52,919 nt of DNA, filler included, from Perkinsus olseni (GCA_013115125.1; 3 parts of 3 records of this genome joined end to end with filler, not necessarily neighbours in it); one strand, 5' to 3'. Shown: positions 8,651 to 52,919, counted from the first letter of the whole stretch. The notes: generated by a model not told the origin, from the sequence alone. Translations and numbers: made by a program.

Positions 8651-9893
8651 ATGAAGCTCCCACTACTTCGGTGCTTGTTTGCTATGTGGGCGGTGTCCGT
8701 TGTCACAGCATCAGAACCTGGCAACTGTTCGATCGCTGCGGCACGGTATGGTTTGACGGACTTCCCTGAGTTTTCGGTGGACCGTTCACAATCGTCGGAG
8801 CCTCTTAGCTTTTGCGAGGATTATAATGGTAGGGAGCTCGCACTTGTCATTGCGAACCTGTACCCAGCAGGCTGGGCGAATTGGGCTAGCCCTGGCGTTT
8901 GTCTAGCGTGGCTGATGCTGTTGCCTTACTCGTTGTGATGTCTTCGCCAGAACTGTACTCGCGTACACCGCAACAGAATAGCTAGGGTGAAATAGAGGAA
9001 CACGGAGTTACATCGCACACTACTCAAGGCAGGGTCATCACGGCGTCTTCATTCTCACTCTCTGTGCCTTGTGAGATCATCTGCCACAGAATTGGATAGG
9101 GGCGAACGACCTTACGGTCGATAGTCACCCAGCAGGATTATTGTTCGCATACCGCTCTTCGCCTTCTTTTCAGCAAATACGTGCTGTGGCCTGCGGGATG
9201 ATATTCGGATCCGATCGCGCTTCGTCAGCCTGGTGGCTAAGGCTGTGGGGACGGGTGAAGGCGTCAGCGTTAAGTGCGCCGATATGCTTCGCAAGGTGAA
9301 CTCCTATCCCCTGACCGCGCGCCACGAAATTGTGGGTTCAGGTCGCCTGTCTGCCCTGTGATGGCCACCTCGCCACTCAATCGAAGCTGCCATCAATCTG
9401 CAGATCCTTCTGCGACTCCTGGTTCGATTCCTGCCGAGGGGATTTCTTCACGGTCGTTAGTAGCGGCAACCGACTGGATCTCTGCGACCCGAAGTCCAGT
9501 CTGATATGCTCTCGCCTGGACGAGATAGTATCGGATTCGACAGAGCTGTGCGAACGGTCAGGCGTAGGCCAAGTGCTGGGGATTGACGGCGATGAGGATG
9601 AGGCCGATGGTGACTTAGAGTGCTTCGATGCTCAGCCTAGTCCTGAGCGCGCCAGTAGCATCGCTTGGCAGCCGGCAGCGCCAAGCGGGGGCTACGACGA
9701 GGTCTATCGATGGCTTCGAGGGAACTCGAAGGTCTTCGTCTTGGCAGCTTTTGGCCTGCTGTTGGTGGTTGCGAAGATGTACACGAAGATATATAGTAGA
9801 GGAGGTCGAAGGCGGGAAGATACGAGGTTGAAAGATGCTCGAAAAGATTTCCTGGAGCGATGGCAGCGTCAACGTGACAATAAGATTGACTAG
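8651..9893 (+). CDS. Folate-receptor-family Cys-rich secreted/type I membrane protein
   Basis: Signal peptide MKLPLLRCLFAMWAVSVVTA; Cys pattern FCEDYN..TCC..KC..VACLPCD..ICRSFCDSWFDSCRGDFF..LC..ICS..ELC..ECF; C-terminal TM helix. Confidence 0.7.
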
Positions 9894-12273: not shown

Positions 12274-14942
<2,669 letters not shown>

Positions 14943-14998: not shown

Positions 14999-17282
14999 AT
15001 GTCTGCAAATGATCCCTTCATGGTGATTTGAGTTCGCCTAGGAGGGGGAGGACATTCACGGCGGGCATTCCACTCACGAGCTGGAGAGAAGGTATACCAC
15101 ACGTTTCATCGATTGATATGCCATCACAACGAGGAGGCTGCCGCGGCAGCAAGAATCGGGGATCTTTCTTGCACGACATTTTCGAAGAGGTGGGCGTGCA
15201 CTCGAAGTGAACTCATGAACAAGAATCCAATTGTACAGGACATTGGGTCGCTGTTGAAGTGGCATATCTACCGGAGCCCAAACGAGCAGAGGCGATTTGT
15301 CCACTTCGTAAAAGACCTCTATAGGAACTACAAAGTAAGTCGTACCGACAGGAGTCGATCAGGAATCTATTTTTCTCGAAGACACTTTGGCCGAGTGGTT
15401 AAGGCGGCGGCCTGCTAAGCCGTTGGGCTCTGCCCGCGAGGGTTCGAATCCCTCAGGTGTCGTTGTTATGAATTCTCCGAATTTATACTTCTCGGCAGGC
15501 TAGGAAGTGTTCTGCCTCCTCTTCAGGATGAAGTTATTGGCTCGCGGATCGCCGCTTCACAAATTCCGGATCGACAGGAGCGCCGAGTATTTCTGGGTCC
15601 CTCGAAGAGTGTACCCCTCATACTCCCGCCCATCAAAGTGGGTCCCTGAAGGTGGCTTCAATGCTCATCATTAGGTGGCTGGTAGGTTCCTCCTTCGAAA
15701 GACTGTGAGGACTCCTTTGCTGCCGTGGCACAGCCGATAGACGTGTACCTCAACCGTCGTGGGGCAGCTCTCAGGCGCAGGCGGAATAAACGTGGGAATG
15801 GAAGCCGTGTTCCTCAATCATGTGGATGGTTCCCAGGCGGGCCGGCAACGTCTGATGGTGGGCAGTCCGAGACCATGTCTGAGTTCCTCCTGGGATCGGT
15901 GTCCTCGCAACCGTCAAGTAGTGCGGGGAGATGCTGTTCTCGCTCCGGCGACTCGTGCACACCCCATCCTGCTAAGCAGAGAATCTCGACCCGACGGATA
16001 CTGAGTTACTTTGCCTCAGTGGCTACTAACTCGACAAGTGTGGGAAGTCGCTCAAGTGGGAGTGTCTGGACCAGCGTCAGCTGCATGACGAAGACCTCTC
16101 GAGTACAGCGCACAGCTCGGTACGCCATCGGTTGCACTTGAACTCCTCAGGGGGGCTCCGATTATAGCGCATTGATGACGAAGTACCACGACGACTACCG
16201 CTTCCATCGACGAGCAATGCGAGTCAATTTCCGTCGCTGGACGTCCGCCCAGGCTCACGAGGCTACAGGGCCGTTGCCCACTCAGAGGTGAAGCCTTTGG
16301 CTGCCGAATGTCCCTCCCTTCCATATGAAGGATTCCCGCTGCACCCGCGTCATTCTTCGCATCCACTGGCAGTTACCCCAACGAGAGGCGATTGATCACC
16401 TGGTACGACAGAGACTTTAATGGAGTTTTACCTGACGGGAGCAAGAAGCAAAAACCTGGTAAACTTCATCCCACCCGCCAGACGCTCTTTAAGTTCCCGA
16501 TTTCTCAGACAAATCTTCATCTTCAAGGATAGCCAGTAACGCATTTTCCCCTGGTGTAGATCGCGGACTTCTCCGCGGGGTGTTCAAACCCCCCCTCTTC
16601 GGATTTATTCAGAATCACGTGCAGCGATTGAGTGAGCTCCCTCTCCGCTCCCCAGTGCCCACCGCCTCCTGTTTCCTCAGCCCCCGTGGACAGAGAGTGT
16701 TTTATGTCCTGTTTACGAAGTTTGCATACTCTACGCAAGGAATCGCAATACGTCACCATGTAAGAGCGTGATCAGCCATACCTCGGGAATTTTCTCAATG
16801 AGCCTTCTGCATTTGCGTCCTGATGACGGTTGTTGTAGCCTCTTCGCTGGTCCTTGTCATCTGTGGCTGCTTCTCTCGTGGCCACTCGCGGTGTTATCAG
16901 GCATAAGCGAGAGTTCCCGCCTCTTGCTGAGCACACTCGAATGTGGCGTCCTGCAACAGCGAGACCTGTCATGGACCGCATCAAGTTGTGCCAGAGCAAA
17001 GTGACGCTCAGTGGGGATCCAGCCTTGAAGGCTTTTGAAGGACCGTGTAGAGCGACGCTTGCCGAGGCGATGCGGGAAGCCGCCGCAAGTCGCCTGATCA
17101 ATGGGGATGTAAGTCGGCGTCTGTATCCTCGCTCTACCACCACGGTTTCCCTCAGGCGGCGTCCAATGAGAAGAACCCCAAACTCGTGCTGCAGAGGTTG
17201 CTCGAGCGTGCTCGGCGAGGTGAGTGTTTCTCATTTTACCAGCAGGAATCCTTTGCATCGGTCGCCGCCTTCCATCAGATGA
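14999..17282 (+). CDS. Hypothetical multi-exon protein (host of tRNA-Ser); ends uncertain
   Basis: GT-AG splicing gives a continuous frame: SKNRGSFLHDIFEE|DIGSLLKWHIYRSPNEQRRFVHFVKDLYRNYK|DEVIGSRIAASQIPD...LPPIK|VPPSKDCEDSFAAVAQPIDVY. No family recognised. Confidence 0.5.
15381..15462 (+). tRNA. tRNA-Ser(GCT), inside intron 15335-15526
   Basis: GACACTT/AGGTGTC acceptor, TGGCCGAGTGG A-box, GCGGC-CT GCT AA-GCCGT, long variable arm GGGC-TCT-GCCC, GAGGG-TTCGAAT-CCCTC. Confidence 0.95.
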
Positions 17283-17624: not shown

Positions 17625-17724
17625 NNNNNNNNNNNNNNNNNNNNNNNNNNNNNNNNNNNNNNNNNNNNTTAATTAATTAANNNNNNNNNNNNNNNNNNNN
17701 NNNNNNNNNNNNNNNNNNNNNNNN
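17625..17724. other. Artificial contig spacer (N44-TTAATTAATTAA-N44)
   Basis: 100-nt linker with stop codons in all six frames, flanked by Ns. Confidence 0.97.
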
Positions 17725-35290: not shown

Positions 35291-35390
35291 NNNNNNNNNN
35301 NNNNNNNNNNNNNNNNNNNNNNNNNNNNNNNNNNTTAATTAATTAANNNNNNNNNNNNNNNNNNNNNNNNNNNNNNNNNNNNNNNNNNNN
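35291..35390. other. Artificial contig spacer (N44-TTAATTAATTAA-N44)
   Basis: Identical to the spacer at 17625-17724. Confidence 0.97.
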
Positions 35391-35669
35391 GGTATAGATA
35401 TCCTCGACCCCCATATAGGCAACAGCAACCTTATCCGCCAAATAGACTTCTGAATGGTATAGACCGTAGCCGTACTGTCGCCCATCTCCATCATGCGCTA
35501 ATCCTGGGATCAACCACTATATCACTTATATGGTATCTTCTATTTTATGAACTCCTCGCTCAACCTCATCGATGGTATCTTCCATTATGGGCTACATCCA
35601 AGGGAATTCTCGCATATTCCATACACGATATCTTTTATTTCATGAAATCCCAGCTCAACCTCGCATATT

Positions 35670-39443: not shown

Positions 39444-39822
39444 AGTGTATGTGGACAGAGAGAAGAAGGAGACGCACTGAACCAGGATTCGGAAAAAATA
39501 CGGAAAATTTAACCAGAATAAATTTTCCGTCGCTTTTGGCCATCGAAAGTTTCAAACGAGGAGTGTCCTCACTCATGATACTTGAGCTCCCTTGAGCTTC
39601 CTTAACTTTTAGGTTCTCCAGAAATGTTACGGGCTAGGTCAGTTCCAACTCCATCAAATCTTTCATAGGGGAGGATGGGGACATCCCACACAAAAGCTGC
39701 AGTGCGCCGTTCTCGTGATCACGAGACTCCGTCACTGCGCCACAAAATTCGTCTCTCCCGTGTAGAGCCTTCCTCCCAAACGCAAAGGAAAAAATGTCAA
39801 AATTTCCGCACGTCCAAAAATT

Positions 39823-41216
39823 TTACTCTGACTTCTTTTTCTGGCCGAACACCCCGACACAGTAGCTACAGACAGGAGTACCGGTAACCATGACCTGAGA
39901 AAATGCAAGATTAGGCAAGATTTCAAGATGCATGGCACTTACCACAATCGACATGACTGCGATCGTGAGATGCAGCGCGTGGGTGGCGGGACAAATCGGT
40001 GAGGATTTTCCGCAGAGGTCATGATTAGGCATCCCGGGAATATCCGCAGCGAGATCGGACACGTATCTTCGAACATCGTGATAAGCATGCTCAACCTCAA
40101 GATTCGAGTATTTTTACTTTTCACAAATATTCAACGTGAACAGATTGTCCGAAAATCCAGAGCGTATCTTCCACTTTGCGCAGAGCACGCTCAACCTCAC
40201 GGGATTCACTGTTTCCGACGAGGGCCTATGGTCCACCTAGTTTTGATAAAAGCTAGATCTACACAAGGCGTATCTTTCGTGAAGGGCATGCTCAACCCTT
40301 CATTCACAGATAAAATACCCTCACGGGGATTCGAACCCGGGACCTACTCCGCGCCAATCATAGTAATCAGCATCCACAGCGCTCCAACAACCGGCTGGAA
40401 GAAGATACTCATCGCGCTGGCAATGTGCGCACAGCCCATAATCTTCATCAGCTGCGGCACGGTCGCAATCCCACAGAACTTCATGGCGTCCTGCAAAATC
40501 TAATTTCGAGGCGCGCGAGAAAAACGGATCATCCTTTCACCTTCATGAACTCGGTTTTGGCAAAGTAGGAGTAGGCCACCGGAAGATATGCCTGGAGATC
40601 CGACGGAGCGATGTCGTACGCACAGGCAATATTGGCGATGCCAGAACCTGAAAGAAGATGAAGAAGAATAGATCGGAATTGACATGAAAGATACGCGATT
40701 GAGGTCAAAGATACGCCATGAGATTGAGGTCAACGATACGCCACGAGGTCGACGTGGAAGATACGCCACGAGGTCGAGGTCCAAAATACGGCACGAGATT
40801 GAGGTCAAAGATACGGCATGAGATTGAGGTCAAAGATACGCAACGAGGTCGACGTGGAAGATACGCCACGAGGTCGAGGTCCAACATACGGCACGAGATT
40901 GAGGTCAAAGATACGGCATGAGATTGAGGTCAAAGATACGCCACGAGATTGAGGTCAAAGATACGCCACGAGATCGGAGTCAAAGATACGGCATGGAAAT
41001 AAGGAGCTAATTGAGCAAACGTCGATGAGTATCCTTCATGAGACATCTCGATATGCATTGAGTGGAGAGGGTCGAGTAATGAGCATGATACGATACCCGT
41101 GTGACGTCGTGAATATTGTTACCAAGGAAGATGATCATTAATCCGAAGTAGCAGCCTACGGCCACTGTCTGGAAGATGAACTTGACCATAACAACGGAAG
41201 AAGAAGAAGCTGACAT
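39823..41216 (-). CDS. Small DoxX-like multi-TM protein with C-terminal dilysine (KKKSE*), five exons
   Basis: Spliced: MSASSSSVVMVKFIFQTVAVGCYFGLMIIFLG|SGIANIA...FMK|ILQDAMKFCG...IMGCAHIASAMSIFFQPVVGALWMLITMIGAE|YVSDLAAD...VMSIV|VMVTG...FGQKKKSE. Family call is by motif resemblance only. Confidence 0.6.
40311..40347 (-). pseudogene. tRNA-like 3' half (T-arm/B-box) starting at an intron donor
   Basis: Minus strand: GTAGGTCCCGGGTTCGAATCCCCGTGAGGGTATTTT, first bases of intron 40347-40067. Confidence 0.65.
40687..40994. repeat. Intronic 25-bp minisatellite (~12 units) with a 100-bp higher-order repeat
   Basis: Unit GAGATTGAGGTCAAAGATACGCCAC plus variants GAGGTCGACGTGGAAGATACGCCAC and GAGGTCGAGGTCCAAAATACGGCAC; lies in intron 40648-41122. 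Confidence 0.95.
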
Positions 41217-41728
41217 CACGACCACTCTCTTACGTACTAATGATAATACTCACATATCTTCTACTGTATGCTATATACGTTATTCGTATCTTTAGGTCGC
41301 CCGCGCAAGTTTTACTGTATAAAGATACTCACATACATATATTGAAGCGTGCATCACAATTACTCAATAATTAACATATCCGCTACCATCACCCTCTCCC
41401 CAGGGAAAGGAAATTCATTCTTTGTTCCCTATTCTACCTTGACCCGGCGAGAGGCGGAAGAAAACAAAACCGACTGCGTGACGCACGGACGCAAGAACGT
41501 CTGTCATCCCGCAGGGACCTGCCCTAGTAGCACAGCTCCGGGGTTACAACCAGAAACACAACGGTTGTCCCCACAGGGCAGAAGGGCCCGAGTGAACCAA
41601 CTCGAGCTGCGGATGGCGAGTGAAAGCCATAGAAAAAACGATACCCGCTCATCATTCAACTGAACACAACTGAGAACTCAAAACTATTAATAAACGGAAA
41701 ATTATCAATCGTAAAATTCAACTCGACA

Positions 41729-44700
41729 TTATTCGTTCGGCCCCTTCAAGGACTCACCTTCTTCCATATTGACCAATTTCTTTGATCGTTTCCCGCGCGC
41801 CAGAAAAATATAACAACAACTAGCCAGAAGGAGACCGGCGAGCAGTCCTCCTGACGACGCTAGAAAAATCGCCAGGAAGTTATTCGATCCAAATCGATCA
41901 AGTGATCGATTCTGACATTCGGCCTCATCTGGGACCAGAGAGCGGAGATGATCCAGAACCGACGTGACGTTACAAGTAGATCTGAGAAAGACAAAACTCG
42001 AGGAGCAGAAGTCTATTAGAATAAAATCTTGCAATCTTGAATTTCCTCAAACTATGCCACAAGCAAATCTTGCTCTCTCTTACTTCCCTCGGCATTCCTG
42101 GACGCCATCCGCTGTGGCAACTCGGCCGTTGTAAATAAATCTTGCCGAATTGTCGGAATAAAACTCCACGATGAGCATTGACCCAAAAGAAGGCCAAATC
42201 GATGAACATAACTTACCCGAATCCTGCCCTGAACGGAAACCAGATGCCTTTCACCGCGCCACAAAATTCTTCACCGCGCCGCGAAATTCGGATGGGAAAC
42301 TACTGGAGGGAGGCAAGATAAGCTCCTCTCGTGCAAGTGCTATTTGGCTATCCCAGCAAATGTGATGTCAGAAACCACGGGTGAAGAAAGCACAAAACCA
42401 GAATAATTTTCCCCTTACATCGTAGTCCTAATGCGGAGAGCATTTCACCCATCGGCCCCGTATCGTGACCAGAATAAAGAGAGAAGCTGCGGCCCGAGAT
42501 CGTCAAGTCGTTAAAGACATCCTGAGAAAACGAAGTCATGCCACCAAGGATCTCAAAACATGAAAACGGGAAGCACGTCGAAGCTTTCTCTTCGACCACC
42601 TTCGAGGCAGTAGTCGATTCTCAACCAAAGACGCGTCTTGGAGATCAGAAGAAGCATGAAGACTGTCGATTGCTTACTCGGATGAGCGGCCCGATCGAAT
42701 ATCGCAGTAAATCCGGAGTGACTTGATATCGACCGATGGACCAAAACCTGCAGAGTAGTCGAAAGGTCCCTGGTTCGAACCCCACACCCGATAGTCCGAC
42801 GAACTTGAGCAAGAGACACGCTCACATATCAAAGAAGGCAAAGTTTTCCCCATACACTCCCACGTTAGTCGTGAGAAGGTCTGTAGCCAACCGAGAGGCC
42901 CCTGGTTCGAACCCTGCTCACGTCGCTTCATTCACTATATGATTCCATAAGTCACCGCCAATCTCTAATCCAGTAGGCAGCTTTTTCGGCTCACTCGGTA
43001 CGGTAGAGCAAGCATGACTCATCAGACAGTCCTGAATATCTTGCAATCTCGCATTTTCCCAACGCAATCATATTACCAGCATCCTCCCATAAATCTTGGC
43101 AAGGTTAGCCGGGTCGCCGTTCATCCAAGCGTCACTGCGCCCCGTAATTTTCCCGATTTTCTCTCTCATTCTTTCCGAGTTCTTCACATGCTCTCTGGCT
43201 TCTTTCGACTCCAAGAAAACTCTCTCTGCCGCAGAAAATGCTGGACAAACCTGCGAAGAATTGATCGAGTAATTCCGTCACGCGCCACGAAATTCCCAAC
43301 GCGACTCACATCCGGATTCGGCTCCATACCATCCACCGTACGGTCTGGTACAACAACTTCAAAGGCTGTGTTATTTCCTGAGGCATATCAGGTATTGCAA
43401 TTTCGCTCGCCCAAAATTATCAAACCGTCCAAAACACGCCCTCACTCGAAGATTACGCGGTGGATGAGGACTCATTGAGCATGACACTGTAACGCTGATC
43501 CAAAGGCATTCCACATCATCTATCACACGACCGCGCGCCACGAAATTCGCCCCCGCCAGATGAGACGGCATCACCATCATCATTCGGAAACATTCCCATC
43601 GTCAAGGCTTGCGCGCTCTCGATCGTCCGAGGGCAGTCATCCGCTCGTATCATCACCTTGGGGTTAGCCGGACTCTAACGGAAACGAATGAAGAGAGTTG
43701 AGACTACGGGGAGGGGAGCTCACCTTGTCCAGTTTGAGCGCTTCGCCATAAGCGTTTCTCAATGCTTGTCCATTCGCTATTTGCATGTCAATTCCCGAGT
43801 CAACTAATTGGCCTAGAAGAAAGGGAGCAGGGATAGAACCATGGACCTCGGGAATGGAAGTTAGTTGAGTTGCCCACTGCGCTATTTTACCTAATATACA
43901 GTTGCCACGGAGGCTGCCGAGGTCGCCGCGCACTCGTAAAAACTTCGGAGAGAAGGAACCTTCCAATCGCTCATAGCCGGAAAACGTTTGGCTGCTGCAA
44001 GAGTATCTGAGGTTGAACCATGCAGGATACACAAAAACTCAGCTGCACCTTACACCGTTTCATCCCCCTCCCAGCATCCTTTACTCTGAGTCAAAACTCG
44101 ACTACCATGGCGAACGAAAGTCAGGACGCGAGACTGAAACAACACACCACCACACAGCATACTCGATCCCTCGCTTGGAATGGTAGGTCAATCCAAAGGT
44201 CTTTCCGAAGGGGTCCGAGGGTTCCTAGAACCAAAGGGGTACGGAGATGAATGATAACTGCAAGCAATAGCCCACAGCACATTGACCTATCCACCCAACC
44301 GAGGGTCTCTAGAATGCGCGTCTTATCTGAACCCCTGTGTGTTTGCCGTAGAAACTTTTCACACGCACGATCCAAATGCACAGGCTGTCGTGGCAAAAGG
44401 ACAAAGTACTGGAGCGCGGCCACCGAATCTCGTTGAAGCGATTTCGCCTCTAGGGGTGGCTCCAGCGGCTGAGGCTTTCCCTATACATCGTGCTGTATAT
44501 GGTACGATCGCCACGTCTCTCAGCACAAAGGGTTTCATCGAACTCGGCTGTATCGGGAATACCCCTACGTAACCCTCTCTGTTCCCCCGGCCGCAACAGG
44601 TGTGAGTGACACTGGACACTAAGTAGACATAGGAGGAAGAGCATCCCCAAACGGCCTTGGCAGCACAAAGCCCCGGACCCGATGCTGCTCCCGTATGCTA

Positions 44701-45081
44701 ATCAACAGAGGTAAGCCTGTCGTTTACCAAGTCGATATTATCATCACGCCCCTCGGGATCGCGAAAATAGCACTACGTCAACTGGGACGATGAAACGTTG
44801 AAACAACTCAAGTTGATGAGGATTTGTTGCGCGGTGTCACCAACCACCCTCAAAGTGCCCAAAATTGCAATTTTCTAGGGGAAACAGTAATTTCTAGTTC
44901 GACTGAATTAACAAATATTCCCATCCATTCCAACTACTACCACTGTGCTGCCTCTATTCCCCACAAATGGCGGTGTCGGCCATTTGAGATCTGCGTGACA
45001 GTAATACAGCGGCTCATCCTCGGGGAAAGCCTCGATGATGGGGGCACATAGTAATAGTGGAAGAAGGAAGGTTAACAACAT
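41729..45081 (-). CDS. Histidine acid phosphatase (lysosomal/prostatic type), signal peptide and C-terminal TM, multi-exon
   Basis: MLLTFLLPLLLCAPIIEA...GNRGSTV|SRVLTFVRHGSR (RHGxR), CILG|QLVDSGIDMQ, IRADDCPRTIESAQAL, SIGPLIR, FSLYSGHDTG (HD), TM LAIFLASSGGLLAGLLLASCCYIFL. Confidence 0.88.
42760..42792 (+). pseudogene. tRNA-like T-arm/B-box element, antisense in phosphatase intron
   Basis: GAAAGGTCCCTGGTTCGAACCCCACACCCGA. Confidence 0.6.
42890..42921 (+). pseudogene. tRNA-like T-arm/B-box element, antisense in phosphatase intron
   Basis: CCGAGAGGCCCCTGGTTCGAACCCTGCTCAC; ends exactly at the minus-strand donor. Confidence 0.6.
43813..43890 (-). pseudogene. 78-nt intron that is a full-length degenerate tRNA-like sequence (A-box and B-box at tRNA spacing)
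   Basis: GTAAAA TAGCGCAGTGG GCAACTCAACTAA CTTCCAT TCCCG AGGTC CATGG TTCTATC CCTGC TCCCTTTCTTCTAG. Confidence 0.65.
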
Positions 45082-46833
45082 GATAACTGGCACATCGGCC
45101 GACACTATGATCACGAGTATTGTACTGTTTATACCGCTGATCCCATCTTGCTCGCTGAGCTGAGCTAAAGCGTAGATCATCTACGTCACTTACGTCATCT
45201 GCGGTAGATGACGCGAAGACAATAGGTCAATGATGGGATCCCAGATAGCAAGACCCGGGTATTGTATTCTCAATGAGCGATTATCTTTGACTATCTTTCC
45301 TTGGCCTCTTCGAACCGTATTTCTATTCAGCTTCTCAATAATCATCTACTTAAGAGATGTTCTTGAGTAGACGATTATTGTTGCATGATTGTATTATTAT
45401 GATTGCAGCTGCTGGATATCTCTGTTCCGAACAGAGATACCCAGGGGCTGCCCTTCGAACTAAACTCCCAAGGTTTGGGCTTACCCTCGACAGCGACTAG
45501 AACGACGTACAGTGCGAACCAAACCGTTATGCAAATCACCTTTTGTGAGACAACTTGCTCTATAAGGAGAGTTTATAAATGGAACTCGAAAGGTGTACTG
45601 ATAATGAGAGAGAAAATCGATTGACACCGTTTCAGAACCGTTTCATCATCCATCCTTATGTTACGAGCGCGCGAAAATTTCCGGACCCTGCCGACCGACC
45701 CAAACCGTTGTACACTGTGTATGGTTCCTCTTCGCTCCGCTGGGAGAGTCTCCATTCGGGATAGAATGGAATTAGCAACATTCGTCGCTGGGTCCTGATG
45801 CTGTCAACGTTCAGCACACACCGGTGTCTGTTTGATTGCCTGCCCCTATATTGCTAACTGAGATTTTACCCATCCGAGATCACCCTCAGCTCCACCTCTC
45901 GAAAAGTCGCTAACTCAATATCTGTCAATATCCGGAGTCAGACACCGTATGACCAAGTAGTATCACCGAGGCCTGGGTGTCAAAATCTGCGAAATGCGTT
46001 GATTCCACCACCCCCTTCACTCACCCGAAGATTCCTGCATCTCACGATCTCTCTCGATGGGCCTAATAAACCATGCAGGTGAAGTACTAGCAATTACTAC
46101 TGATCGGATAGTAGCGCGCAGTATTATGGGCACCAGACGAGGCATTAGGTATGCCATACCTACATGTCTAAGGATGTTATTAACAAGACGAGATTGGGAC
46201 GTACGAAAGGTATGGTCGTCGGCCCTCTCATGAGCGTTACAACCACAAGGCCCCTAGCTCAGCGGACTCCACCGAACACAACTTCCAATAGGAGCATCCT
46301 CCATATTGGAGATACAAGGACGACAAAGACTCATGATGGAAAAGCCTTGCTAAGTGAGTATCAATAGACAGAGCGAGAAGTACAAGTACGGGTGAGCTCT
46401 TGTAAGCACCCGAGTCTAGAAGGAGAACGACCACCTCCAGTCTGAATCGAGCTCCGCAGACAGAGGGGCGTCAACGTCTCAGAGGATGAAACGCTACGAA
46501 GGCTGATCCCCAACGTCGGAGCGAATATCTGTCAAGCCGCTATCCACTGTTCCCGAGCCAAAGGCTCTTCCCCAAGTCGGAGATAAACCGGCTATCATAC
46601 GAAAACGATCAGCTCATTGGGGTACGTGATAACGAGAACCACGAAAATAGAATGATAACAATAATGACAACCATTACAACATCATCAACATGGAAAGGCA
46701 TCATAAGAGCTGAAAGAAAGTCGGAATTGAATAGCGAATCCATGGAGAGTGACGCCAGTTCACAAAATGATAGACCACCTCAATGCCAGTATAATACCAT
46801 AACTTCCCCAAATCACAATAACTAAGACACTGA

Positions 46834-47247
46834 TCACCAAGGGCATTCACCCGGGCTCAAGATTTGGGGGTTTGCCTCGACCGACATCTGGATGGTATTA
46901 GTTTGCCAATAGTAATCATACTTGAAGAAATCATTGTCGTCGAAGTGGTAATTTGGGCAGTCATCCCTGACCTCCCTCATGAAAGCATCGTATGCCTCTG
47001 TGCTACTGTTGTCGATCTCATAATGGAAAGGGGTAGTCTCTCGGACGTGGACCTTTCCCAATGTCCTAACCTCGGTCACACAGTTGAATAGGAGGCTGAT
47101 GTGGTCACCCTCGAACCATTCCACCTGAATGCACTCAAAGAGAGGGCCGAGTATTTTGAAGTACTTCCCTCTTGGTGGACCAGCTCGTGCGAGTACCGGT
47201 TGGAGTGGTACGATAAGGGAAGCGCAGAGAACAATAAGGACCAACAT
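46834..47247 (-). CDS. Small secreted hypothetical protein, intronless
   Basis: Signal peptide MLVLIVLCASLIVPLQPVLA followed by GPPRGKY and a Cys-containing ~120-aa domain. Confidence 0.65.
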   Translation of the reverse strand: MLVLIVLCASLIVPLQPVLARAGPPRGKYFKILGPLFECIQVEWFEGDHISLLFNCVTEVRTLGKVHVRETTPFHYEIDNSSTEAYDAFMREVRDDCPNYHFDDNDFFKYDYYWQTNTIQMSVEANPQILSPGECPW

Positions 47248-47481
47248 GACTGTTAATGATGCCTGAGGAATGTTTGGACAGTTGAGGAAATGCAAGTGAG
47301 TTCAAGAGAGCCAAGATTTCTAGCAGGTGTTTATGTAATAGAGCATCGATTGTGGGGCTAATTAAGCACTTCTCATCTGGCAACCAGACTGTCACTTGCC
47401 CGTAGAGGCGTTAATAGTAGGATATCCGAGGTTGAAGCTGGTTAGATACAGAACAGGTTAAGTTGTGAGCTATTGTTGTTA

Positions 47482-50400
47482 ATGATCCGTCCTCCACTCT
47501 CGATCTTTCTTTCTGTCATAACAGCCACACTTGCTGCTGCTGCAGCTGACAACGAGTGGCAGACTGTGACAGCAAAGTTCAATCCGAAAACTAACCAAAT
47601 TGTGTACAACGATGTCAAGTTCGCTGGCCCGGAAGTCTTGGACCACACGCACTTCGCCTTCAATACGATCATGACGGTCGTCTGTGTGGTAATGATAAAA
47701 CCCTACAGATTTACTATCTTCCATGGACCGAATCTTTCATACTGGACGTATGCACGTATGGGTCTTAAAACTCTGTGAGATATCTTCTTCCGTACTCGAT
47801 ATTAGGTAAGGAGGTTATGCTTTTCTTAAGTACTTTGTCTACCATTGCGTACGAAGTGGGAGTTGCATGCCTAGTAGAATGACTAATGACGAAAGTTAAG
47901 CATTTATTGAGCTAGTATGTGCACGTCAACTCCGAGCATGCGCGCCGTCTTTTGGAGGTATCTTTTATTCATGCTGGTTTCATACATAATAACCTCGTTT
48001 CATCTATAGTCCCATTAACTCGAGCGTATAGTTTTTACTTTCGTCGTTCATGCTGTTCAGATCTGTGCTGCTCTAGCCTCCGGTTTGACGATGGGATTGG
48101 TATCTTTGGACGACTTCGACCTTCGAATACTGATGGAATCCAGTGAGGATGATGTGCCCGACCCTGCTGATAAAGCTGAGATGAGAAAGGAGAAGCAAGC
48201 TGCTATTAAGTTGTAATATCGACCGTGTCGTCGCTGGCCCTTGTTTGTATTCCCCTTCTTCGAAAACCTTCGCTGTGCGCTCTTCGTGGTATCTCTGACC
48301 GATTTCAGCTGCCAAGCTTGTGTATCTTGCGGTTTGCGTAGAGAGCGCTCCCCCGTGCGCATACAAATGCTTTTTTGTTCTATCATGTCAGGCATCCTTT
48401 GATCTCTCGTCACCATCTCCTGCTTGTGACTTTACTTTTGGTAAACTCGTTGGCAAACGAAGCTTTGCCGCTTTTCCTGGACCAAATAGTACCTCCATAC
48501 ATGGCAGTGCTGGTGTCAGTCACACTGGTAATAATAAAGGGGATATCTTGCACGCGTGCGCAAAATCTTCCGAGTGCGCTCCATTGATCTATCTGGAGTT
48601 GTACAAGAGTGCGTTACTGGTCTTCTCTTCGAAGATTTTCATGAGGGCTGGGGAATCTTTACTGTGCGGGCTGAGTATCTTACCGTTCGTATGCCCATCA
48701 GGTGTTAGTATTTGGCGAGATAATCCCATCGGCGGTATTCACAGGACCAAATCAATTATCAATAGGAGCCGCCTTCTCACCGTTAGTCAAGTAGTGCGGG
48801 ATGGGTGTCGGTGCTGGGATTCGAACTCGGGGTCTCGTTTGGACTTAAAACTGCGGTATTAGGGCGCCTCGAGGTTCCGGGGGTCGTCATTCGTACTTGT
48901 TGACACGTGGGTTCGCAAATAACACAGAAAATGTGTATCTTTCGATCGAAGTTAGACTTCCCCACGAGTTCCGATAGAAATGACCCAACCGGGGTTCGAT
49001 CCAGGTTCATGATGATAGTCGTTTACCCAGTGGCGGGTCCGGTCGCCTGGTGCCTCGATAAGACGCTGGGAGAGGAGCACAAGGGACGGTACAATAAGGC
49101 GGAGTTCAAGGCGTTGTTGAACTTACATCAATATGACGACGTACTGGGAGAGATATCGGGTTCGATCCTCGGTGAAGGCATTCTCATCGCTTTTATGGCT
49201 TCTCTGAACTGAGAATATCGCGCCAGTTTATGTGCGGACAACGAAGGGTCTAATGAGTGGTTGATAGTCGGCTATTAGATGTCTTCGAAATGAGCGTTGC
49301 GCACGTTGAAGGATTCTGAAATTGGTGATGCTTGGTCGCTCAGACTGGAGATGTTGATATAGAGACGGGTATAAGCGGTCAGTCTTCACCTTTGGATACC
49401 CACACGACGACAGGGGGAGATGGTCCAACCGGGAGAGGGGAAGTCCACCATCATGTAATGAGCGAGGTCGTGGGTTCAAATCGAGTCGGGGGAAAACGAA
49501 AGTTCACGTCATTTTCGCGTCCACGATTTTGCCTTTAACAGGGAAGTGAAACTTCAAGTTCTAGTTCGGGAGTGACAATTTCGGAGAAGCATAATCACGA
49601 TTCGATCCTCGCCACTTGAAACTTACAGTAGTCCGCAGATGTGCTCAGGTTAGAAATTCTAGATGACCTTCTGACAGCCGGGCCGAGTAGTCGACCTTTT
49701 ACTACGCCAAATGGGTTTCCATAATTCTGAGTTCAGTTCTTGTCGATCGACTTGTCGATTTTGACGGAGAACTAGCTCACTGGGAATGGAAGACTTCACG
49801 CTGGATTTACTGTTCCGTTGTGATTTTATTTGCGGATAACTCGGATGGATTCTGGTCAGGTCCAATTACACTCCCGCGGTGGCATCACGAAGGAAGAGCT
49901 CCGAATGATGCAGGGGGCGTTGGAATTACATCGTCTCAAAGTAAAGGATGTAATGACGCCGTTGGACCAGGTAATAGGACGCGACCTGGTGGGATAGTTT
50001 ACACGGATATAGACCAGTGAAGGAGATGGAGATCCTTCCAGATTGGTATCCGTAAAAATTTAGTATTGATTCATGCGAGTTGGATGAGCCTTTTCTATCC
50101 TGGATGAGAAGGGCATATCCAATTCGGACAAATTGCCCAAGGATTGTGAATCGCAACTCCGCAAGTGGGGAACAACTCAGAGTGAATTTCGTTAAAACTC
50201 GACTGACGTATGAATGATACCGTTGGCTTTCTTGTAGGGGGCTGCAATCGTTGTGGAAGAGAGGGCTCGTTGAATGATGTGCGGAAGGAGTGGTATGGTT
50301 TATAATCTTAGTCCCCCCATGTTGTGTAGTATCATGTTAGCACATCAAAGAATACGAGCGCTGATGTGTGGGTCACTTCGAACTTGTTTATAGTTCATGA

Positions 50401-52500
50401 ATTATGGAAGATGCCCTATCTGCCTAATCGGTCGGAATGGCGCGCGCTTTGTGCAACTCAGGTAGCAATGTATTCAGCGGACCAAGTTCTGGATTCCAAG
50501 ACACTCCAGGATATCATGGAGAAGGGTCATTCGAGATTGCCGATTTACCAGGGCCATCCACACAACGTAGAAAGGCCGGGGGTGGGAGTCGAACCAGGGA
50601 CCTTTGGGATGAGAGTGTTGAGCAGGTGCATGGCATGCTGCTCGTGAAGCGTTTGATTGTTTTAAATCCAGAAGATAAAGTACAGATAGGAAACACAGAT
50701 TTGTTGGAACCGATGGTAGGTGACCGGGAGAGCGCTTTCCGCTTTTCGTAATTTAGCAAAATTGTGAGTTGGGCGGAGCGAAGCGAGTCGTGCTTGTCAG
50801 ATTTGCGATATGGATACTACGCTGCTGGATATGCTCTATGAATTTTCAACTGGCAGAAGCCATTTAGCAGTAGCGACGGATGATCCTGAGAGGGTAGAAA
50901 GTTCATACCAACTTTTTCGCGAAACATGGCGCATCTTTTCAGGTTATCCAAGCCATCCACGACGACAAACAGATTCCGTGCAATATTCACATGGCGGGAA
51001 TCATCACGTTGGAAGATGTGATTGAGAGATTGATAAAACATGACATTCAAGGTAGGCGTTAAAACGTTTGGATATAATAGCGTAAAAAAATCCGGGTGAG
51101 GTCAGCCTGTTCGAAGCGGGCATGAAGATTGTATCCGGTCGATGTATGGCTAGACGTACTGCGTTTGTTATGGGAGTGTGTTACGTCTCAGCGCATCTTA
51201 AAGTCGACCCTGAAAGATACAAGTGAGGTCGATTTATTTTCAGATGAGAGTGATATATCAGTGACGTTGCAACCTGTACTGCATCTACCGACCTCGAGCG
51301 GGAGCAAGATCAAGATGTAAGATATTCTCGTTTCGGGTTGGAGAGCATTCCTACGTACGTGAAGATGAGGTCGGGATTCCGAGCTGGTCCTGGATGCCTC
51401 TTTGGAAGGCATAATTTCATTCCATTTTGCCCTGGGACGAGTAAATTCCGCACAATATCGACCCGGAATATCTTTCTGACGCTCCCACCCTTTGGAGATC
51501 CACGTGATGTCTGGCAGTCGCAGTGGCTGCAGTCATCGAGAAGCAACCGTTTCGTTTGGAAATTTCCTGTTCTTCGTAACGGATCGGCGGTAACGTCCTT
51601 TTGCCGCCCTGGTGTACTCCGTTTTCTGTTCTGTGTTTACTACATGTTAACTATGTGTTAACTTCTCTCTCCGTTCACTGACCTTCATCATTGCTACATC
51701 CTCGTCGTCATGCTCCCAGAAAATGGCCTCTCTTCTTTAGAGAGGCAATGTTCGACGTTTGTCCAGAGAATCGAGCTATGCCGTGTACGCATCTTTGTTC
51801 ACTCGGATTGGCACCCGGTCGTTATGGCTGTCGGTGGAATATTCATCGTCATTTGTGTTGTTCCTGTCAGTCCCCCTTCCCCGCGTGGTCGTAGCATCAG
51901 GGTTAACGCCCCATCGGGTGTGTTGTCGATAAAACATCAGCCGGCTAACGGAGTTGGAAGTGGGTCTCACTTCTCTTCTGAGTATCTTGAGATGCTTGTT
52001 ATTCTAGGGTCGACTTCGGCGAAGGTGTTGCACTCCTCGTCATCGCAGGCGGGCAAGGAGAGTCCCTCACTTGTGGTGAGTAGCTGGTTAAGACTCGCGA
52101 TCTTCATTTGAGAGGTCCCTGGTTCTATCCCCGCTCGATGAATTTTGCCCTCAGACGCCTCTGCTCAAGGACGCGTCTCCTATGAATCACAGTCCGATGC
52201 CGGTAATCTCCGAGTCATCGCCAATGTCGGGCCACTCGGCGTCGTCATCGAAAAGTGAGTCGATCGCTTCGATCTTGCTAATCTTGCTCACCTTACAATT
52301 CCTCTAGGCAAGAAAAACCCCTCTGTTGGCCCCTCAACGTTGCCACCGAAACCCATGGCGTCTCCCGAATTAGGGAAACAAGGAAAAAAGGACGTCAAAA
52401 ATACAGGAGGTGAGGAGGTATCTTGTTTTCCGTGAAGAGCATGGGGAACCTCGATAGTTGTTCTGGTGGAGCAACTTTCTCGGAATGGTTATGACTACTG
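47482..52500 (+). CDS. CNNM/DUF21-CBS domain membrane protein (metal transporter family), multi-exon; 3' end approximate
   Basis: Signal peptide at 47482; CAALASGLTMGLVSLD, HHLLLVTLLLVNSLANEALPLFLD, YPVAGPVAWCLDKTLG, MQGALEL..KVKDVMTPLD, GHSRLPIY, GRSHLAV, GIITLEDVIERLI. Confidence 0.88.
48802..48856 (-). pseudogene. tRNA-like 3' part, antisense near 5' end of CNNM intron 48791-49004
   Basis: Minus strand: GCAGTTTTAAGTCCAAACGAGACCCCGAGTTCGAATCCCAGCACCGACA. Confidence 0.5.
49141..49182 (+). pseudogene. tRNA-like T-arm at the start of a CNNM intron
   Basis: GTACTGGGAGAGAT ATCGGG TTCGATC CTCGGT GAAGGCA; T-stem still pairable. Confidence 0.6.
49455..49496 (+). pseudogene. tRNA-like 3' half at the start of a CNNM intron
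   Basis: GTAATGAGCGAGGTCGTGGGTTCAAATCGAGTCGGGGGAA. Confidence 0.5.
50567..50625 (-). pseudogene. 59-nt CNNM intron filled by an antisense tRNA-like 3' half
   Basis: Reverse complement: CTCTCATCCCAAAGGTCCCTGGTTCGACTCCCACCCCCGGCCTTT; exons join as GHPHN|VHGMLLVK. Confidence 0.65.
52073..52154 (+). pseudogene. 79-nt CNNM intron (52076-52154) resembling a decayed tRNA-Glu(TTC)
   Basis: GTG|GTGAGTAGCTGGTTAAGACTCGCGA TCTTCAT TTGAG AGGTC CCTGG TTCTATC CCCGC TCGATGAATTTTGCCCTCAG; exons join as SPSLV|TPLLK. Confidence 0.65.
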
Positions 52501-52851
52501 TGTGAGTCGGCTAGCCCTGCGTATACATTTTGGGAAAAACAAAGGATTTTTCGGTGTATCGAAGAACGCCATTACGAAAGCAAGAAGTTGGTCCTTCGTG
52601 AGCTTCCCGGCCACCTGCAATGCGTTTTCGGTCTCTACTGTCGACGACGAGCACTGTCACTGAGTTGATTATCGTATCCGTCGCGACAGCATCACGTTGA
52701 TGGCGACACGGGTATGAATCATGTTGTGACGGTGAATGATCATGCACGAGTTGCGGGTTTTTTGAGAACCAGCAGTGTGTGAGCAGTTTAGATCTGCTGA
52801 AACGCTCTTTCACGCCGGAAGCGTTACTCGGATCGAACACATCTCTTATGC

Positions 52852-52918
<67 letters not shown>

Positions 52919-52919
52919 G
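52852..52919. repeat. (TTG)n microsatellite at contig end
   Basis: More than 20 uninterrupted units up to the window end. Confidence 0.97.

Follow-up and report, generated by a model that had tools for sequence, protein, structure and literature searches.

A family of tRNA-like segments in the third contig

The stretch of Perkinsus olseni DNA analyzed here (GCA_013115125.1; 52,919 nucleotides, hereafter the window) consists of three contigs with runs of N between them (17625-17724 and 35291-35390). The third contig (35391-52919) contains what we take to be genes for a DoxX-like protein, an acid phosphatase and a CNNM protein; these names come from a first-pass annotation of the window and have by-eye support in an HD motif and in DUF21- and CBS-like stretches. 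The same annotation listed 11 short tRNA-like segments in this contig and placed all of them in introns of these three unrelated genes. We report that eight of the segments are credible relics, all of them in contig 3, and that five of the eight form one tight family. We suggest that the relics may well descend from RNA polymerase III (Pol III) units of the tRNA type that were inserted in protein-coding genes.

The results rest on the 52.7 kb of sequence in the window, on public RNA contigs over 41050-52840 and on a single pattern scan of metagenome contigs. The RNA contigs come from four runs belonging to four studies, one of the runs being recorded as RNA and two being guessed as RNA. We name each relic after the start of the segment in the first-pass annotation (e42760 and so on); the 28-base motif window has different coordinates. 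The relics, and the tRNA genes with which we compare them, are as follows.

42762-42789, plus strand: motif of e42760, antisense to the host gene; 41.6 bits, 35.3 bits when left out of training; 14 bases from a 3' splice site, the intron edge at 42748 corresponding to tRNA position 28
42894-42921, plus strand: motif of e42890, antisense to the host gene; 40.9 bits, 34.5 bits when left out
43813-43890, minus strand: cassette e43813, 78 bases and thus tRNA-sized, in the sense of the host gene, a predicted intron; A box at 43874-43884, motif at 43823-43850, T-rich trailer; starts with GTAAAA at tRNA position 2 and ends with TAG; motif 38.3 bits, 28.6 bits when left out
50578-50605, minus strand: motif of e50567, antisense in the 59-base intron 50567-50625; 39.1 bits, 29.8 bits when left out
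52111-52138, plus strand: motif of e52076, a sense copy in the predicted 79-base intron 52076-52154; 40.0 bits, 30.9 bits when left out
40320-40347, minus strand: motif of e40311, with an exact B box; the 3' half of an ordinary tRNA
48810-48837, minus strand: motif of e48802, an antisense relic with a looser likeness to a T arm; the 5' splice site of intron 48791-49004 is 19 bases away
49149-49176, plus strand: motif of e49141, with a perfect hairpin (TCGGG/TTCGATC/CTCGG); the 5' splice site of intron 49141-49343 is 8 bases away
12580-12653, plus strand: tRNA-Gln(CTG), found by ARAGORN and Rfam (65.9 bits); intact
15381-15462, plus strand: tRNA-Ser(GCT), found by ARAGORN and Rfam; intact
20886: tRNA-Met, found by ARAGORN and Rfam

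The scores are those of a 28-base position weight matrix (PWM) trained on the six copies that the first-pass annotation had grouped under one consensus. The B-box consensus GGTTCGANNCC occurs six times in the window, as compared with an expectation of 0.42, and none of 100 shuffles reached six. The word AGGTCCCTGGTTC, with up to two mismatches, likewise occurs six times (1.09 expected in the window), all six occurrences falling within 40333-52125. At 20 bits or more the PWM found six sites in the window and none in 300 shuffles. When each copy was scored with a matrix from which it had been left out, five copies (e42760, e42890, e43813, e50567 and e52076) retained 28.6-35.3 bits; the sixth, e40311, fell to 7.1 bits, far below the other five. 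The proposal of a common consensus is therefore borne out for five copies, and e40311 does not belong with them.

Four sites outside the training set reached 11.8 bits or more in the window, as compared with 0.107 per shuffle in the 300 shuffles. These were 48810 on the minus strand (16.1 bits), the real tRNA-Met gene (14.0 bits), 49149 on the plus strand (13.0 bits) and 9411 on the plus strand (11.8 bits), the last of which lies inside an open frame (9315-9893) and is probably coding sequence. The real tRNA-Gln and tRNA-Ser genes received negative scores, and the matrix is in this sense family-specific. Perfect T-arm hairpins (five base pairs plus TTCRANN) number seven in the window, where 1.85 are expected; they include the three real tRNAs and also 49156 and 51105, neither of which is individually above chance. 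Thus, the tight family consists of five copies, and e40311, e48802 and e49141 are further credible relics above chance, whereas the three remaining segments on the original list (48990, 49455 and 51098, with 1.9, 0.4 and -19.5 bits) are doubtful, being indistinguishable from chance. A self-BLAST of the window returned only three repeats.

The five family copies have in common a T stem that does not pair (CCTGG against CCCAC, CCTGC or CCCGC). The B box is exact in four of the six training copies, namely three of the five family copies and e40311; its core is broken in e43813 and e52076, both of which read GGTTCTATCCC. Hence, the earlier observation of a surviving core beside an unpaired T stem applies to all five copies as regards the stem, and two of the five depart from it as regards the core. 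Conservation is equally strong in the stretch 5' of the B box (AGGTCCCT) and in the box itself. Mean pairwise identity among the five copies is 0.83 over the 22 bases at tRNA positions 44-65, and only 0.25-0.40 at positions 10-26, 27-43 and 66-73 and in the trailer, where random sequences would give 0.25, or 0.37 with shifts allowed.

Several features of the relics are in register with a tRNA gene. A run of Ts (TT, TTT or TTTT) starts immediately after tRNA position 73 in five of the eight relics (p 8e-5, from a TT background of 0.071), and the three real tRNA genes of the window have TTGTT, TTGTT and TTTC at the same place. Besides the A box of e43813, TAGCGCAGTGG, the only exact match in the window is in tRNA-Ser, and the e43813 box precedes the B-box-like word by 44 bases, the spacing seen in tRNA-Met. 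In e52076 a D-arm-like TAGCT..GGTTAAGAC, with a deletion of 4-5 bases in the D-arm word, follows a GTGAGT donor, and TTTT (52143-52146) stands right after position 73; the 5' half of this copy aligns with the real tRNA-Gln better than do 99.7% of shuffles (p 0.003). The combination of A box and B box at tRNA spacing is thus complete in e43813 and partial in e52076, and no A box lies inside the intron in any of the three antisense copies. An anticodon-loop-like CTYYCAT occurs at the correct place in three copies. As for the other relics, e40311 consists of AGGTC, a T arm pairing at four of five positions, a 7-base acceptor strand and TTTT (40312-40315), and e49141 shows about 70% likeness, by a count made by eye, to the 3' portion of the tRNA-Met gene of the window.

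As to function, no listed segment is a working tRNA or has a tRNA fold, and it is probable that none of the five family copies ever worked as one. ARAGORN at its default settings and Rfam found the three tRNAs at 12580, 15381 and 20886 in the window and none in contig 3. The Rfam family RF00005 gave no match with E<=10 in 39500-52919, nor in 100-base slices around 43813 and 52076, and the region and the two slices yielded only chance-level matches to unrelated families. The three short introns described below fold no better than their shuffles (z 0.00, -0.03 and 0.91). With its thresholds lowered, ARAGORN made 54 calls (ps85) and 144 calls (ps75) in the window, most of them with huge 'introns'; these calls were uninformative and were not used.

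The 22-base pattern was also sought in metagenome contigs, which gave at least 123 matches at no fewer than 119 loci. Among the matches listed, only nine lie in tRNAs called by ARAGORN; 118 have full flanks, and of these 83 fall into multi-copy groups (of 16, 15, 9, 7, 6 and 4 members, with smaller ones besides); an A-box-like word is found at tRNA spacing in 36. In these unrelated contigs the pattern thus appears to be characteristic of tRNA-derived repeats that have degenerated. BLAST of the window against the 119 listed loci found no similarity extending beyond the motif; apart from microsatellites it returned a single 43-base match, between e50567 and a tRNA-like sequence in locus L008. 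There is, accordingly, no sign among the listed loci of a close relative or a donor. A horizontal origin from a short interspersed nuclear element (SINE) of a host was considered and is unsupported, the shared 22 bases having been imposed by the search pattern.

Taken together, the T-run after position 73, the canonical A-box spacing and the position of the motif at the head of tRNA-derived repeats elsewhere support the descent of the relics from tRNA-type genes, that is, from Pol III units, as the first-pass annotation had supposed.

Introns around the relics

RNA-proven introns enclose eight of the 11 listed segments (42760, 42890, 48802, 48990, 49141, 49455, 50567 and 51098), six DNA runs contain the complete unspliced stretch, and the spliced reading frames are open throughout in both the minus-strand and the plus-strand gene. 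Splice joints (15 listed of 26) were taken from the RNA contigs, and the borders were then shifted to GT..AG. This gave the following introns.

41982-42083, minus strand: intron of the acid-phosphatase-like gene
42229-42418, minus strand: intron of the same gene
42522-42677, minus strand: intron of the same gene
42748-42921, minus strand: intron of the same gene, 174 bases; CT..AC joint in the X7, X8, X10 and X19 contigs
47689-48060, plus strand: intron of the CNNM-like gene
48213-48391, plus strand: intron of the same gene
48528-48701, plus strand: intron of the same gene
48791-49004, plus strand: intron of the same gene
49141-49343, plus strand: intron of the same gene
49455-49859, plus strand: intron of the same gene
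49971-50461, plus strand: intron of the same gene
50567-50625, plus strand: intron of the same gene, 59 bases; GT..AG joint 50566/50626 in all four runs
50716-50800, plus strand: intron of the same gene
50894-50942, plus strand: intron of the same gene
51052-51243, plus strand: intron of the same gene

The intron at 42748-42921 carries a tandem of two antisense units, spaced 132 bases apart, with one at each end. The units are cut by the donor at tRNA position 69 and by the acceptor at position 28. The donor falls inside e42890, whose final two bases, AC, are the donor GT on the minus strand (joint 42745/42920, cut +2). The 59-base intron 50567-50625 is nearly all antisense e50567: it is made up of tRNA positions 22-73 and a 7-base trailer, TTTCTAC, the complement of which contains the donor GTA, and its acceptor is at tRNA position 22. 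An intron of 59 bases could not predate an insert of about 50 bases, which leaves two possibilities: the intron was made by the insert, or it results from the rebuilding of an older intron around the insert. Joints 48790/49005 and 49140/49344 in the RNA contigs border the introns that hold e48802 and e49141. The second of these introns starts with GT-ACTGGGAGA (49141-49152) and the exon after it with ACTGGAGA (49344-49351); the resulting repeat, ACTGG(G)AGA, at the two ends of the intron is possibly a short direct repeat and possibly chance.

The motif of e52076 was intronic in 261 of 261 admissible exon chains, which had GT[AG]..YAG borders and an open frame and were built for a 1941-base record with 150 loose bases past 52414 and a 75-base exon after 51243; a run free of these constraints gave 1113 chains and was not decisive. 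The borders of the intron varied among the chains, being at 52073, 52076 or 52080 at one end and at 52154 or 52192 at the other. The segment at 43813-43890 has good splice signals (TTAG/GTAAAA ... TTCTAG/G, the slash marking the border). It is also stop-free, is in frame with the open reading frame at 43664-44038 and is absent from the 15 listed joints. Arithmetic on contig depth fitted introns at 52076-52154 and 52255-52307 and fitted 43813-43890 either spliced or unspliced; it was not used, since a stretch that lacks coverage proves nothing. In both sense copies the tail, consisting of the 3' strand of the T arm, the acceptor strand and the T-run, is rich in pyrimidines and is followed by YAG. 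The intron of e43813 ends 6 bases past tRNA position 73, and that of e52076, whose GTGAGT donor is at about tRNA position 3, ends 12 bases past position 73 and 8 bases behind TTTT. Finally, e40311 directly follows the TAG that closes the frame 40344-40499 (minus strand), the last clear exon of the DoxX-like gene, and it may lie in an intron or in the 3' untranslated region of that gene.

The picture of relics confined to introns of three genes is therefore to be narrowed. RNA joints bear it out for eight of the 11 segments and the exon chains for 52076; for 43813 an intron is predicted, and the DoxX-like copy, possibly in a 3' untranslated region, leaves two host genes. Similarly, the notion that the elements define introns applies to one proven intron, of 59 bases, and to the predicted introns of 78 and 79 bases. 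The 28-base motif windows lie 0-19 bases from the closest intron end, and it is true, as had been noted, that most segments lie within ~15 nt of a splice site. Such nearness is only weakly surprising in short introns: under uniform placement within each intron, the five RNA-proven cases gave a Fisher-combined p of 0.03, and the full set of seven gave 0.07.

Two intact tRNA genes of the window also appear to reside in introns. The tRNA-Gln gene is in the sense orientation, 23 bases past the GTGAGC donor of a predicted 188-base intron (12557-12744) in a kinase gene, which agrees with the earlier suggestion that intact intronic tRNAs represent the starting state. The tRNA-Ser gene, also in sense, lies in a predicted intron that runs from a GTAAGT at 15337 to a CAG whose last base is 15498, 162 bases in all.

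Origin of the relics

We favor, at a probability of roughly 0.55, the view that the relics are remains of Pol III units of the tRNA type which were inserted in protein-coding genes and survived only where the spliceosome removes them. Such a unit would be laid out as an A box, a B box in the T arm, a 7-base acceptor strand and a T-run terminator, and it would have entered the genes of this perkinsid-type protist as a retroposed Pol III transcript or as DNA captured at a break. The five copies would constitute one degenerate, non-tRNA family similar to the heads of tRNA-derived SINEs, and e40311, e49141 and perhaps e48802 would be fragments of ordinary tRNA genes of other origin. In the long introns the relics would be passengers near one end; in the 59-base intron and the predicted introns of 78 and 79 bases the unit would be essentially the whole intron. 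A sense unit could supply the intron's own signals, with its 5' end at the donor (G/GTAAAA, G/GTGAGT) and its pyrimidine-rich tail before the YAG. The short introns would thus have been born from the insert or rebuilt around it, and it is plausible that the units created all three.

Several observations weigh against insertion of such units. Similarity that is sharply bounded at 22 bases is not what a recent insertion of a single element, or a uniform decay, would predict. The eight relics are all crowded into 12 kb, the remaining 40 kb of the window having none, a clustering that fits local spread or regional function better than random insertion. On reading the junctions we saw no target-site duplication, no poly(A) tail and no tail resembling that of a long interspersed nuclear element (LINE). 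The closeness to splice sites is weakly above chance, and mainly by virtue of 42890; the cuts at positions 22 and 28, where two antisense copies meet 3' splice sites, are not accounted for by this view; and 43813-43890 could be translated by read-through instead of being spliced. For the first of these points, promoter constraint in diverged source (master) copies, as in SINE lineages, is the best explanation; selection in place, on TFIIIC sites or on another signal, is possible.

The relics are like the heads of tRNA-derived SINEs in consisting of AGGTC and a T arm with a B box, in their non-pairing T stem and in the T-run after the unit, and the 22-base pattern likewise heads multi-copy repeats in the unrelated metagenome contigs. 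They are unlike such SINEs in having no body, no LINE-like tail or poly(A) and no visible target-site duplication. Moreover, the units here are at most 80 bases long, with the T-run within 12 bases of position 73 and no further shared sequence in the introns, and the whole-length similarity of SINE copies is replaced among the window copies by 0.83 identity over 22 bases only.

A stronger version of the insertion model would have a minimal tRNA-derived Pol III unit of ~75-80 bases generating introns in perkinsids, as a 'tRNA-type introner' whose core is kept by selection. We regard this version as unlikely. In the sense orientation the 5' end of the unit would become the donor, and the T arm, acceptor strand and terminator tail would become the polypyrimidine tract and acceptor; in the antisense orientation the trailer would supply the donor. 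The B-box core would be selected in master copies or, in place, as putative TFIIIC sites, and a 22-base core selected in either way would, if real, account for the sharply bounded conservation and the regional clustering. The relics resemble the introners of Micromonas, Aureococcus, dinoflagellates and Amoebophrya in that a repeat makes up whole short introns, one proven and two predicted, in either orientation and in that the host is an alveolate related to introner-bearing lineages. They differ in that the introner copies described in the accessible text of two reports are near-identical over their full length and have direct or inverted terminal repeats (PMC7789003, PMC11282704), as do those of Amoebophrya (PMC7789003), whereas the relics share only the 22-base core and show no terminal repeats. 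A 2024 review of transposon-derived introns considers that most introners appear to be DNA transposons; in the text available to us the word 'SINE' does not occur, and 'tRNA', which is used six times, appears in connection with tRNA introns and in references but never with introners (PMC11282704).

Most of the elements known to make introns are DNA transposons; conversion of a tRNA-type unit into a spliceosomal intron would, if it occurred, represent a distinct way of gaining introns, and would also link the unusual abundance of tRNA genes reported for Perkinsus to its gene structure. In P. marinus, according to the portion of the report by Kojima and Jurka available to us, five types of tRNA gene together amount to more than 500 copies and are targeted by transposons (PMC3706591). 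Even as relics of tRNA type in introns, the sequences call for an explanation of the bounded 22-base conservation. We found nothing in the literature on tRNA-like introns or introners in perkinsids, subscription journals and supplements being outside the search.

As an alternative to insertion of a mobile unit, the relics could be the remains of the host's own intronic tRNA genes, decayed in place, with the T arm persisting as the most invariant and most recognizable part. The intact tRNA-Gln and tRNA-Ser genes in predicted short introns are what such a process would start from, and e40311 and e49141 do resemble 3' halves of ordinary tRNAs of different origin. Intronic tRNA genes are frequent elsewhere, accounting for 44-47% of the tRNA genes of C. 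elegans in the accessible text of one report (PMC4999229); there, as here, tRNA-type Pol III units occupy introns of Pol II genes in both orientations and, like the tRNA-Gln gene here, can be intact, whereas the relics are non-functional and three of them fill their proven or predicted intron. Independent decay, however, would not leave five copies with one and the same T stem that fails to pair (CCTGG against CCYRC), nor with 22 bases that are 83% identical; the family PWM scores the real tRNA-Gln and tRNA-Ser negative; and a 59-base intron is too small for a whole tRNA gene with intron signals of its own. We therefore consider decay in place improbable as an account of the relics.

Yeasts have extra-TFIIIC (ETC) sites, B-box sites at which, as in the relics, a B-box-like word stands without a tRNA. 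In keeping with such sites, the 22-base motif might be under selection wherever it is present, as a putative TFIIIC-only array of the ETC type or as some other intronic signal. Its conservation is limited to the motif, with flanks at the random level; it occurs in both orientations relative to the host gene, as would be expected of a site read on DNA; and the copies are clustered within 12 kb. Against this, and in contrast to yeast ETC sites, two of the five copies have a disrupted B-box core (GGTTCTATCCC). The stretch 5' of the box (AGGTCCCT) is, moreover, no less conserved than the box. Nor do the relics compare well with human nimtRNAs, which are likewise tRNA look-alikes within spliceosomal introns and which, in the part of the report available to us, keep and need a cloverleaf to enhance splicing (PMC7722341); the intron RNAs here have no such fold. 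Selection in place seems to us slightly less probable still than decay of resident genes.

That the segments are chance or compositional look-alikes is scarcely credible: although 48990, 49455 and 51098 do not exceed chance and the 9411 look-alike falls within an open frame, no shuffle of 300 reached the 20 bits at which six sites were observed, the features in tRNA register add to this, and the PWM scan and shuffles refute chance for the five-copy family.

Other features of the window

A second recurrent motif, CGCGCCACGAAATT, has nine matches with up to two mismatches, where 0.29 are expected, at 9318, 35806 (minus strand), 36276, 39736, 40502 (minus strand), 42255, 42275, 43281 and 43534. 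Several of the matches are in proven or predicted introns, in both orientations, and the sites at 9313-9331 and 43529-43547 are identical over 19 bases. The complement of the motif (GAATTTYGTGGCGCGGTGA) matches, at nine of 11 positions, what we take to be the A-box consensus.

The heptamer GTATCTT occurs 43 times in the window (for example, at 35533, 40063, 40164, 40270, 48322, 48675 and 48935), as compared with about six expected from length alone, and 11 of the occurrences fall in one tandem repeat. There are four units of the form GTATCTT-N(17-21)-GCTCAACC(T/C), three of which are ~100 bases apart just downstream of the last exon of the DoxX-like gene. A tandem repeat of ~25 bases at 40660-41000 has about 13 copies with AAGATAC in each, and it lies inside an intron of the DoxX-like gene, since RNA contigs that stop at 41121 resume with 40617-40646.

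Spliced-leader remnants mark the 5' ends of three mRNAs, at 41211 and 45088 (complement CTTGGCTCA at both) and at 47468 (GCTCA). They do not match the TTTTGG of the dinoflagellate spliced leader. They match, over nine bases only, the end of the P. marinus spliced leader ACCGTAGCCATCTTGGCTCAAG in the accessible text of one report (PMC3101222), and to that extent favor a perkinsid-type origin. The minus-strand gene terminates, on its 3' side, at 41693, as shown by a poly(A) tail.

Over ~160 bases (45508-45666) an X7 contig departs from the window by 18 listed base differences (19 as counted by the tool for that piece of the contig) and by three small indels, beyond which the match is perfect; it looks like a diverged allele or a paralogue joined to the locus. 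At the far end of the window a (GTT)n microsatellite (52850-52919) ends the contig, and the last exon joint, at 52414, leads outside the window.

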